Origin: Escherichia coli
GTDB lineage: Bacteria > Pseudomonadota > Gammaproteobacteria > Enterobacterales > Enterobacteriaceae
Direction: 5' to 3' (one strand)
Length of the DNA: 64,000 bases
NCBI RefSeq assembly: GCF_003334405.1
Contig: NZ_QOWM01000004.1
Position numbers and translations under genes: made by a program. The notes beneath the pieces are model-generated. The model saw only the letters and a list, made by a program, of their open reading frames with translations, was not told the origin of the DNA and made no database searches. Shown here one piece after another: positions 8,588 to 14,539 of the stretch (position 1 is the stretch's first letter; each line of letters begins with the position of its first letter).

Positions 8588-11836
<3,249 letters not shown>

Positions 11837-11864
11837 AGGCAGTACATTAAAACAAGGAGCGGCA

Positions 11865-12776
11865 ATGTATTACGGGTTTGATATTGGTGGAACAAAAATT
11901 GCGCTTGGCGTGTTTGATAGCGGTCGGCAGTTGCAGTGGGAAAAGCGGGTGCCGACACCGCGTGACAGCTATGACGCATTTTTAGATGCAGTGTGTGAGC
12001 TGGTAGCTGAAGCTGACCAACGTTTTGGCTGTAAAGGTTCTGTCGGCATCGGTATTCCGGGAATGCCGGAAACAGAAGATGGTACGCTGTATGCCGCCAA
12101 TGTCCCCGCTGCCAGCGGTAAACCGCTGCGTGCCGACCTGAGCGCACGTCTTGATCGCGATGTACGCCTTGATAACGATGCCAACTGTTTTGCCCTTTCA
12201 GAAGCCTGGGATGATGAATTTACTCAATATCCACTGGTGATGGGGTTGATTCTCGGCACCGGTGTTGGCGGCGGGCTGATTTTCAACGGCAAACCGATTA
12301 CCGGTAAAAGCTACATTACCGGCGAGTTTGGCCATATGCGTCTGCCGGTTGATGCGTTAACCATGATGGGGTTGGATTTCCCGTTACGCCGCTGCGGCTG
12401 TGGTCAGCATGGCTGCATTGAAAATTATCTGTCTGGTCGCGGTTTTGCGTGGCTGTATCAACACTATTATCATCAACCGTTGCAGGCTCCCGAAATTATT
12501 GCGCTTTATGATCAAGGCGATGAGCAGGCAAGGGCGCACGTTGAGCGTTATCTGGATTTATTAGCGGTTTGTCTGGGAAATATCCTGACCATCGTTGACC
12601 CTGACCTGGTCGTCATTGGTGGTGGCTTATCGAATTTCCCGGCAATCACAACGCAACTGGCGGACAGGCTGCCTCGTCATCTCTTACCTGTAGCTCGTGT
12701 TCCGCGCATTGAACGCGCGCGCCACGGTGATGCGGGAGGAATGCGTGGTGCGGCCTTCCTACATCTAACCGATTAA
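11865..12776 (+). CDS. nagK: N-acetyl-D-glucosamine kinase NagK (303 aa), ROK family
   Basis: ORF 11805..12776; start placed at [19 protein letters not shown] zinc motif CGCGQHGC. Confidence 0.93.
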
Positions 12777-12791
12777 ACAACAGAGGTTGCT

Positions 12792-13631
12792 ATGCTGTCG
12801 CGTCGGGGTCATCGGTTAAGTCGTTTTCGTAAAAATAAACGCCGCCTGCGCGAGCGTTTGCGTCAGCGTATTTTTTTCAGAGATAAAGTGGTGCCGGAAG
12901 CAATGGAAAAACCAAGAGTACTCGTACTGACAGGGGCAGGAATTTCTGCGGAATCAGGTATTCGTACCTTTCGCGCCGCAGATGGCCTGTGGGAAGAACA
13001 TCGGGTTGAAGATGTGGCAACGCCGGAAGGTTTCGATCGCGATCCTGAACTGGTGCAAGCGTTTTATAACGCCCGTCGTCGACAGCTGCAGCAGCCAGAA
13101 ATTCAGCCTAACGCCGCGCATCTTGCGCTGGCTAAACTGCAAGACGCCCTCGGCGATCGCTTTTTGCTGGTGACGCAGAATATCGACAACCTGCATGAAC
13201 GCGCAGGTAATACCAATGTGATTCATATGCATGGGGAACTGCTGAAAGTGCGTTGTTCACAAAGTGGTCAGGTTCTCGACTGGACAGGAGACGTTACCCC
13301 AGAAGATAAATGCCATTGTTGCCAGTTTCCGGCACCCTTGCGCCCGCACGTAGTGTGGTTTGGCGAAATGCCACTCGGCATGGATGAAATTTATATGGCG
13401 TTGTCGATGGCCGATATTTTCATTGCCATTGGCACATCCGGGCATGTTTATCCGGCGGCTGGGTTTGTTCACGAAGCGAAACTGCATGGCGCGCACACCG
13501 TGGAACTGAATCTTGAACCGAGTCAGGTTGGTAATGAATTTGCCGAGAAATATTACGGCCCGGCAAGCCAGGTGGTGCCTGAGTTTGTTGAAAAGTTGCT
13601 GAAGGGATTAAAAGCGGGAAGCATTGCCTGA
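12792..13631 (+). CDS. cobB: NAD-dependent protein deacylase CobB (sirtuin), long form with Arg-rich N-terminal extension
   Basis: ORF 12792..13631; sirtuin motifs GAGISAESG and [12 protein letters not shown]; internal MEKPRVLV start corresponds to the short isoform. Confidence 0.93.
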
Positions 13632-13637
13632 TGCACT

Positions 13638-13722
13638 ACGCTTATCAGGCCTGCAAGGGGACGCAATTAATTGAATTTGCGGGTTTTGTGGGCCGGATAA
13701 GGCGTTCGCGCCCCATCCGGCA
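13638..13722. repeat. REP (repetitive extragenic palindrome) elements between convergent cobB and ycfZ
   Basis: gccggataaggcgttcgcgccccatccggc and cttatcaggcctgcaag match the E. coli REP consensus. Confidence 0.6.
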
Positions 13723-13750
13723 TAATACACGCGCACTTTTCCGGCCTCTT

Positions 13751-14539
13751 TTATCGTTTACTCGTCAATAACAATGCGGCAATAAACGTACAGACACCAA
13801 TTAGCCCTGCCCAGAGTGGCGATATTCTGGTAATCGCAAAGCTATTATCGATATACAAACATAAAGCCTGATAACCCATATTGGCAATAGTCATCGCCAC
13901 TGCAAATTTTAACGCATAAATAAAACGAGTCGTGTAGTAAAAGATCCTGGAAAATAAGATAAACGTCGCAGCCCAGGCGATAAAACCTAATGTGTTGGTG
14001 CTGCCGGGGGGAGCATTTTCATGCTGTTGTCCTGGATGCGGATAATACGTTAGTGGCGGCGTCGATTGTTTTAATATCTGTGCTTGTAGAACAGCCAATG
14101 CATTATTGATTCCCTGATACCAGAGATCTGCATTTAAATAAGCCAGCGTGTGATTTTCTATCAGAAGGCCGAGATGTTTATCGTCCAGACCACTTTCAAC
14201 CTGGCCGTTGGTGATCATAATTAACCGTGGTTCGCGGGTAGTAAATAGTAACAGAACACTTCCTTTTACATCACTCAATGAAGATGACGCATGCGCCAGC
14301 ATCGCTTTACCATTTTGTCTGAGACTGGCTTCATTATTAATGTCGGGTAAAACCACAATAAACGGTGCAATTCCCGTTTGTTGGCGAAAAAGCTCGGCTT
14401 TATGCGCGATCTCTTCAGCATCTGGTACAGTACCGGTAACGTCCGTAAAAAGTGTCTTCATTATTGGAATTAATGGCTTGCTGGCTGCTGTCAGAGGCAG
14501 GAGTATCAGTAAACTGAGCAGTATAATGAATTTTTTCAT
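13751..14539 (-). CDS. ycfZ: TPM-domain inner-membrane protein YcfZ (262 aa), function unknown
   Basis: ORF 13751..14539; signal peptide plus C-terminal TM helices; start overlaps ymfA stop. Confidence 0.88.

Follow-up and report, generated by a model that had tools for sequence, protein, structure and literature searches.

The reading frame of cobB in Escherichia coli lies open for 37 codons ahead of the conserved sirtuin core, which raises the questions whether this extension is a genuine part of the protein, what it contributes, and how a long and a short product arise from one gene. CobB is the sole E. coli sirtuin and a global eraser of lysine acylation, and the isoform present decides its response to c-di-GMP, polyphosphate, DNA and N-terminal acetylation. 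Here, we analyzed a 64,000-nt stretch of DNA (called the window) that carries the gene. The open reading frame, its composition, purifying selection, taxonomic distribution, the helix and linker predictions and the identity with the K-12 gene were computed in this study; production of both proteins, promoter intervals, ligand binding, oligomerisation and acetylation are taken from published papers. Taken together, it is very probable that cobB encodes two nested in-frame proteoforms with promoters of their own and that the N-terminal tail serves as a regulatory and interaction module. The biology of the tail is already published, and the isoform finding itself holds nothing new for the specialist; the additions made here are a survey of 80 species, the evidence that only Enterobacterales-type CobB carries the tail, 14 loci devoid of an internal start and a predicted helix-plus-linker N-terminus.

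The nagK-cobB locus and annotation of the two isoforms

The gene order in the window is lolE, nagK, cobB, REP elements and ycfZ (E. coli chromosome). A 2-kb query taken from the window showed 100% identity to many E. coli genomes, and the comparison with MG1655 over 10,001 bases revealed 2 single-base differences, both outside nagK and cobB. Coordinates were converted throughout by the relation window position = MG1655 position - 1,166,728. The junction and the coding regions are organized as follows:

11865-12776, + strand: nagK (N-acetylglucosamine kinase), stop codon TAA at 12774-12776 (RefSeq; NCBIfam equivalog NF009835, 591 bits)
12777-12791, + strand: nagK-cobB spacer of 15 nt, with the Shine-Dalgarno sequence AGAGG at 12782-12786, at a distance of 5 nt from the CobB-L ATG
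12792-13631, + strand: coding sequence of the long isoform CobB-L, 279 aa plus stop (ORF list; RefSeq WP_000952737.1, NP_415638.3)
12792-12902, + strand: basic N-terminal extension of 37 codons (composition, conservation, dN/dS)
12903-13631, + strand: coding sequence of the short isoform CobB-S, 242 aa, starting at Met38 (MG1655 YP_010051180.1, 'CobB-S')

The original prediction, made from the sequence, held that the frame is open for 37 codons ahead of the MEKPRVLV core, and the ORF starting at ATG 12792 translates exactly as claimed. The span given for the extension, 12792-12905, was correct at its start, but its end takes in the codon of Met38 (ATG 12903-12905, from which the core reads MEKPRVLV), the extension proper being 12792-12902. 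Nor does the extension overlap the nagK-cobB junction as had been proposed: the nagK stop ends at 12776 and a gap of 15 nt precedes the cobB ATG.

Equation of the extension with the known long isoform was borne out, as the window is identical to MG1655 across nagK-cobB (b1120; NP_415638.3, YP_010051180.1), there being no difference within cobB, and the K-12 annotation has both forms. The MG1655 RefSeq record contains two CDS for b1120, namely cobB (279 aa, 1179520-1180359) and 'CobB-S' (1179631-1180359). Both isoforms were detected in E. coli by western blot from plasmid constructs (Umehara et al. 2018, PMC6209979) and natively in MG1655 with an anti-CobB antibody (2026 study, PMC12926920); published blots thus show two bands and not only the short MEKPRVLV isoform. 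The feature is therefore already documented and annotated in the K-12 reference.

Composition of the extension

The extension contains 12 Arg, 3 Lys and 1 His versus 1 Asp and 2 Glu, resulting in a pI of 12.0 and a net charge of about +11.6, whereas the 242-aa core has a pI of 5.4 and a charge of -10.5. Thirteen residues of the tail are hydrophobic (four Leu, three Phe, two Val and one each of Ile, Met, Ala and Pro). The strongly basic character that had been predicted, with 15 Lys/Arg among 37 residues, was hence confirmed. At least 15 K/R were present in 8 of 17,137 37-aa windows taken from 79 long ORFs of the 64-kb stretch, and all 8 belong to the N-terminus of CobB. We looked for two elements of a two-isoform gene and found both, namely an in-frame ATG with a Shine-Dalgarno sequence about 37 codons 5' of the core Met, followed by a tail of the type with ~15-18 basic and ~13 hydrophobic residues, and a second in-frame start at the onset of the catalytic core (ATG 12903-12905).

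Conservation and taxonomic range of the extension

To survey the extension across species, one genome per species was used, yielding 80 Enterobacterales loci whose DNA was read independently of annotation; the genera extended from Escherichia, Citrobacter, Salmonella, Enterobacter and Klebsiella to Yersinia, Serratia, Hafnia, Edwardsiella, Pectobacterium, Pantoea and Erwinia. An ATG, a Shine-Dalgarno sequence of the GAGG/GGAG type and a basic extension were present in 80/80 species, with extensions of 35-43 aa, 9-17 K+R and net charges of +7 to +14. Relative to E. coli, the dN/dS of the tail amounted to 0.06-0.22 (Nei-Gojobori, 36 codons, 34 gap-free Enterobacteriaceae) at synonymous differences (pS) of 0.4-0.79 over the same 34 Enterobacteriaceae, while the core exhibited a dN/dS of ~0.02-0.04, indicating that the tail is under looser purifying selection than the core. 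Three arginines of the tail (R8, R22 and R24) were invariant in 67 Enterobacterales sequences, and R17 was found in 35/35 Enterobacteriaceae. Within the species, a 164-nt segment covering the junction and the extension was present in 5,426/5,426 complete E. coli genomes, at an identity of at least 99% in 5,130 of them, the weakest match listed having 98.2%. The extension peptide is under purifying selection at the protein level, and its presence in 80/80 species together with the low dN/dS speaks against a frame that is open by chance.

The internal start was less uniformly kept. The codon aligned to Met38 was ATG in 51/80 species and GTG in 4/80, and a candidate internal start was present in 66/80 species if a nearby in-frame ATG, GTG or TTG was allowed. 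In the other 14 loci, which are Pantoea-, Erwinia- and Mixta-type, no internal start codon was found near Met38, so that the long form alone can be made there. As judged from these codons, the long form is universal in the Enterobacterales sampled and the short form is an option in only part of the order. One of the 14 loci is labelled Enterobacter cancerogenus M004 and carries a Pantoea-type sequence, i.e. it is mislabelled.

We determined the range of the tail beyond these genera with a filter-free phmmer search against 1.84 billion protein cluster representatives, which returned 993 homologues at E <= 1e-30. Of these, we considered the best 150, in which a basic tail (at least 14 K/R, aligning from residue 1-4) occurred only at 60% identity or more to E. 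coli CobB. For the remaining homologues among these 150, the alignment begins at query residue 38-44, and where their N-termini are longer they are not basic (no more than 7 K/R among the last 40 residues). Owing to its absence from distant homologues, the tail is best described as having been added, in Enterobacterales-type CobB, to a sirtuin core that is itself widespread. The core itself matched the Pfam SIR2 domain (PF02146) at residues 48-221 with E = 5.8e-54 over the full model (1-180). Residues G48, A49, G50, S52, A53, E54, S55, G56, I57, T59, F60, R61 and H147-G148 were invariant in the 67 Enterobacterales sequences, as were Y92, R95, C155, C174, C176 and C177. We take G48-R61 to be the NAD-binding motif and the His of H147-G148 the catalytic residue, as is general for sirtuins, while Y92/R95 (CobB-L numbering) presumably form the class III acyl-lysine pocket pair and the cysteines the zinc module. 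The curated NCBIfam equivalog NF001755 scored 599.8 bits (cut-off 318) and placed CobB residues 1-275 on profile positions 1-275 of 278, i.e. the profile takes in the N-terminal tail.

These data bear on the possibility of an annotation artefact, in which the frame ahead of the core would be open by chance and the MEKPRVLV protein alone would be made. A run of 37 sense codons has a chance probability of ~0.17 and is unremarkable by length alone, the solved structures of E. coli CobB (1S5P and the 6RXJ-6RXS series) all begin at residue 39 or 40, and homologues outside Enterobacterales begin near residue 38-44, as would be expected if the upstream frame were meaningless. Against this, ATG, Shine-Dalgarno sequence, length and basic character are kept in all 80 species, the dN/dS stays low despite near-saturated synonymous change, the Pantoea/Erwinia/Mixta-type loci leave the long form as the only possible product, NF001755 covers the tail, and western blots show the long form (PMC6209979, PMC12926920). 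The conservation data and the published detection of CobB-L refute the artefact, whose probability we regard as vanishingly small.

Predicted structure and role of the tail

Because the solved structures begin at residue 39 or 40, the tail is without experimental structure, and we used AlphaFold2 with a 67-sequence alignment (mean pLDDT 83), which gave the following two elements:

12795-12872, + strand: predicted single alpha-helix, Arg-rich, codons 2-27 (AlphaFold2, modest pLDDT of 57-67)
12873-12914, + strand: predicted flexible linker, codons 28-41 (AlphaFold2, pLDDT <50 for residues 26-37)

Disorder was predicted for residues ~26-41, with the first core strand at residue 43. In the predicted helix, the hydrophobic residues L2, L9, F12, L19, L23 and I27 fall inside a 100-degree arc with heptad-like spacing, and the resultant of this hydrophobic face was 0.81, where randomly placed residues gave 0.33 (P = 0.003). 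On the Eisenberg scale, the helical hydrophobic moment of the tail did not exceed that of shuffled controls (P 0.5-0.8), because the arginines cover the remaining surface of the helix. Hence, the hydrophobic moment ruled out a tail that is 'strongly amphipathic' in the classical sense, and the description as a narrow hydrophobic stripe was kept.

A basic N-terminus with a one-sided hydrophobic stripe might also act as an export or membrane-targeting signal, either Tat-like with twin arginines or as a membrane-binding amphipathic helix, which would relocate CobB-L. The tail begins with M-L-S-R-R (S-R-R at residues 3-5), resembling the start of the Tat motif S-R-R-x-F-L-K, and a role in localisation is among the possibilities raised for Salmonella in the statement quoted in PMC6209979. 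However, residues 6-32 contain 13 more K/R and 3 D/E and no uncharged stretch longer than 3 residues, i.e. the tail has no uncharged h-region, the hydrophobic moment does not exceed that of the shuffles, and the known substrates and ligands of CobB are cytoplasmic (PMC12926920, bioRxiv 10.1101/362293). A Tat or Sec signal peptide, taken as a basic n-region and, next to it, an uncharged hydrophobic h-region no shorter than 10-12 residues, was consequently rejected, and targeting of either kind is extremely improbable.

Published work instead connects the tail with ligand binding and self-association. Polyphosphate and, more weakly, DNA are bound by CobB-L only (PMC12926920). [quoted passage not shown] In Salmonella, CobB-L forms oligomers whereas CobB-S is a monomer (PMC10965786), and N-alpha-acetylation of Salmonella CobB-L reduces its activity according to the citing statements in PMC8603916 and PMC12299546. 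The predicted basic helix with its narrow hydrophobic seam fits the published self-association and polyanion binding. In the mechanism that we propose, the tail would consist of one Arg-rich helix of ~26 residues with a hydrophobic stripe, which a flexible linker of ~12 residues would connect to the acidic catalytic core, and would move the net charge of CobB from about -10 to about +2. It would not be part of the catalytic machinery but mediate self-association and bind the polyanions c-di-GMP (with inhibition of CobB-L), polyphosphate and DNA, and in Salmonella it would in addition be the target of N-alpha-acetylation that lowers activity.

Promoters and translation starts of CobB-L and CobB-S

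As to the production of the two proteoforms, CobB-L would initiate at ATG 12792 behind a canonical Shine-Dalgarno sequence, on a transcript starting from a promoter in nagK and possibly on a bicistronic nagK-cobB mRNA as well, and CobB-S would initiate at Met38 (12903) from a weak promoter within the 111 nt coding for the extension. The relevant intervals and candidate elements are:

12375-12762, + strand: CobB-L promoter interval (-417 to -30), by deletion in E. coli (PMC6209979, coordinates converted)
12445-12473, + strand: predicted CobB-L promoter (published BPROM), TTGCGT at 12445-12450, 17-nt spacer, TATCAT at 12468-12473 (PMC6209979)
12792-12902, + strand: extension-coding DNA that doubles as the CobB-S promoter interval (+1 to +111), by deletion mapping (PMC6209979)
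12842-12874, + strand: predicted CobB-S promoter (published BPROM), +51 to +83, -10 TATTTT at 12869-12874 (PMC6209979)
12884-12889, + strand: candidate -10 TAAAGT with a -35-like GCGTCA at 12860-12865 and an 18-nt spacer (positional scan)

Deletion analysis in E. coli showed that CobB-L needs sequence between -417 and -30, which lies inside nagK, the gene 5' of cobB (PMC6209979). A construct with 417 nt upstream yielded both proteins, whereas a construct with 30 nt upstream, spacer included, gave no CobB-L; fragments starting at -30 or at the CobB-L ATG still yielded CobB-S (PMC6209979). The absence of CobB-L from the -30 construct means that nothing just after nagK drives CobB-L, and the formation of CobB-S from the ATG-start fragment places the CobB-S promoter within +1 to +111. 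In the original prediction, a promoter within nagK or directly behind it was to serve both isoforms; this holds for CobB-L as far as nagK itself is concerned, but fails for the region just after nagK and for CobB-S, whose promoter is within the extension-coding DNA (PMC6209979).

At the level of motifs, the evidence was less distinct. A sigma-70 consensus scan of 11800-13800 at a threshold of 9/12 returned no site; the published CobB-L hexamers have 8/12 consensus matches and therefore stay below this threshold. Their TATCAT is retained in about half of 15 Enterobacteriaceae, a conservation that is inseparable from coding constraint. The BPROM -10 of CobB-S is not conserved, reading GATCTT in Salmonella and Citrobacter. 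Given the empty scan and the unconserved -10, the internal promoter is defined by plasmid deletion analysis alone, and where we name exact promoter hexamers we infer them. The sole positionally recurrent sigma-70-like candidate inside the extension was TAAAGT, which would leave a leader of ~7 nt. It reached at least 7/12 matches in 10/35 species, with CAGAAT or CATAAT in other genera, and was discarded as the named CobB-S promoter for being too weak. No base-resolution transcription start of E. coli cobB was present in the accessible supplements of Cappable-seq, translation-initiation and N-terminomics studies, nor was a cobB transcription start given in the IolR study. Rfam at the gathering threshold, run on the whole window, returned nothing near cobB.

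Alternatively, ribosomes initiating internally at Met38 of the CobB-L mRNA, and not a promoter of its own, might be the main source of CobB-S. Such a route is consistent with the lack of a convincing conserved sigma-70 promoter within 12792-12902, with the attribution of the isoforms to 'alternative translation start codons' (PMC12926920) and with the production of both proteins from the 417-nt construct (PMC6209979). The region 5' of Met38 is purine-/A-rich, and folding of the RNA from 12760 to 12960 revealed no unusual structure (z = -0.81), so that ribosome access is possible. Met38 is preceded by no strong, well-spaced Shine-Dalgarno sequence, the best being GGAAG at 12896-12900 (2 nt) and GGTG at 12890-12893 (9 nt). 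Opposed to internal initiation are the -30 and ATG-start constructs, which make CobB-S without CobB-L (PMC6209979): the -30 construct keeps the CobB-L Shine-Dalgarno sequence and yet gives no CobB-L, indicating that there is no read-through transcript and that the CobB-S mRNA starts inside +1 to +111. Internal initiation on the long mRNA may contribute and both routes may coexist, but the -30 construct argues against it as the sole route, and we consider it rather unlikely to be the main one.

The same constructs address the idea that the lower band results from proteolysis of CobB-L in the disordered linker. Disorder is indeed predicted for ~26-41, and segments of this kind are accessible to proteases. 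However, constructs devoid of CobB-L production still yield CobB-S (PMC6209979), Met38 or an adjacent start is conserved in 66/80 species, and the MG1655 annotation contains CobB-S as a separate CDS. On these grounds proteolysis was rejected as the origin of the lower band, for which it is a very improbable source, and a separately initiated CobB-S is retained.

Constraint at synonymous sites of the extension

If the extension-coding DNA also carries a promoter, constraint may extend to its synonymous sites. Over 35 Enterobacteriaceae, the tail showed less synonymous codon diversity than the core (normalised entropy 0.51 versus 0.71, p = 2e-4), and of the ten 8-codon windows of cobB with the lowest values, nine were located within codons 3-42. 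When arginine codons were treated separately, the difference vanished for Arg-only codons (p = 0.30) and was modest for non-Arg codons (p = 0.02, n = 15), which shows that the lower diversity of the tail is largely an arginine-codon effect; the constraint was accordingly downgraded to suggestive. Some sites in the codon table of the 35 Enterobacteriaceae were unusually fixed, namely F29 as TTC in 35/35, V33 as GTG in 18/18 and R42 as AGA in 29/33. R30 was the rare AGA in 28/30, while CGN codons were used almost exclusively at the ten further conserved arginines of the tail; Pantoea, Erwinia and Mixta have CGN codons at the equivalent arginine. The fixed sites F29, R30, V33 and R42 sit between the candidate -10 elements and Met38, and from this we infer that they may reflect an embedded promoter or 5' UTR. 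A more far-reaching interpretation, which we put forward as a tentative and on balance doubtful possibility, is that of dual-use DNA: the same stretch would encode the ligand-binding helix and harbour the promoter and 5' UTR of CobB-S, which would fix F29, R30, V33, R42 and the ATYTTTTTCAGAGA block, and the long form would be ancestral and the short form a lineage-restricted add-on that excludes Pantoea, Erwinia and Mixta.

Comparison with CobB of other Enterobacterales and with SIRT5

Salmonella enterica has the same gene order, nagK (ycfX) followed by cobB, and its CobB-L (273 aa) and CobB-S (236 aa) likewise differ by a 37-residue Arg-rich tail (subsp. diarizonae locus). CobB of the E. coli K-12 type has 6 more C-terminal residues (279 versus 273 aa). 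Over 36 tail codons, the two species are separated by 7.3 nonsynonymous and 13.7 synonymous differences, and Salmonella carries two Met codons in a row (M37, M38) at the place of Ala37-Met38 in E. coli. Two transcription starts and activity of both isoforms are reported for Salmonella (study of Tucker and Escalante-Semerena from 2010, as related in PMC10965786, PMC8603916 and PMC6209979). Erwinia amylovora CobB has a basic extension before the same sirtuin core but lacks an internal start, whereas E. coli keeps Met38 and is able to produce both isoforms. According to PMC8603916, which relates the same 2010 study, Erwinia encodes the long isoform only; our 14 Pantoea-, Erwinia- and Mixta-type loci without an internal start agree with this statement and widen it.

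Outside the prokaryotes, the closest structural relative by sequence was SIRT5, which aligns from CobB residue 41 or 42. SIRT5, a class III sirtuin, carries a mitochondrial presequence, i.e. a short Arg-rich, helix-forming N-terminal appendage with isoform-specific behaviour that serves organelle import. The two appendages are not homologous. Only Enterobacterales-type sequences carry the CobB tail. Unlike the presequence, the CobB tail is uncleaved, it is associated with ligand binding and oligomerisation instead of import, and its isoforms come from nested starts and promoters instead of splicing.

C-terminal end of CobB and the cobB-ycfZ intergenic region

The K-12-type CobB comprises 279 residues; the protein of the GTDB representative E. 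coli and of most Enterobacteriaceae comprises 273 and ends in ...LKGL. Comparison of the C-terminal coding ends (window 13611-13631 versus 2299-2322 of L002, a locus from the survey of 80 Enterobacterales species) placed the point at which the two diverge (GGATTAAAAGCGGGAAGCATTGCCTGA versus GGATTATAAATCAGGAGTAATTGCCTGA) directly at the border of the REP-like palindromes that lie 3' of cobB. REP/BIME-like imperfect palindromes make up the cobB-ycfZ intergenic region (window 13632-13746), with two pairs of inverted arms:

13678-13704 / 13709-13735, inverted arms, cobB-ycfZ intergenic region
13691-13701 / 13736-13746, inverted arms, cobB-ycfZ intergenic region

The six additional C-terminal residues of the K-12-type CobB appear to be a side effect of the junction with the repeat elements. 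A consensus scan for an intrinsic terminator directly 3' of cobB returned none.

Another locus of the survey, L047 (JRUP01000004.1), is labeled as Enterobacter cancerogenus M004; its CobB carries an N-terminal tail of the Pantoea/Erwinia type (MRIPRRRLRLARDKKNRRKVHQRFRQRIFERDRKAELAAHPQP) and is devoid of an internal start. The taxonomic label of this record is probably wrong.

Comparison with MG1655 and other E. coli genomes

Over 10 kb, only two differences were found between the window and MG1655:

13721, window C, MG1655 A, in the REP region 3' of cobB
16770, window A, MG1655 G, within potC (minus strand)

These two differences indicate that the source of the window is K-12-like and exclude MG1655 itself. 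Several non-K-12 genomes were 100% identical to the window over 11800-13800, and among the matches listed in E. coli genomes, the weakest to the segment spanning the nagK-cobB junction and the N-terminal extension was 98.2% identical.

Additional features of the window

A run of seven T is located within the extension, 5' of Met38 (window 12871-12877; ATT TTT TTC, codons 27-29 of the extension). In other genera its equivalent is a T5 (ATC TTT TTC) or is interrupted. A frameshift at this run would abolish the long isoform CobB-L and leave the short isoform CobB-S, which starts at Met38, intact.

Within codons 8-13 of nagK, approximately 0.9 kb upstream of cobB, lies a sigma-54-type motif, GTGGAACAAAAATTGCG (window 11887-11903, plus strand). 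This site was listed as intragenic, between nagK and cobB, in a sigma-54 ChIP-seq study (PMC4591121), and an RpoN gSELEX peak at the site was assigned to nagK-cobB (PMC8743547).

The sole Rfam match at gathering threshold in the 64-kb window, with a score of 111.9 bits, is unrelated to cobB:

48696-48774, plus strand, C0299 sRNA (RF00119)
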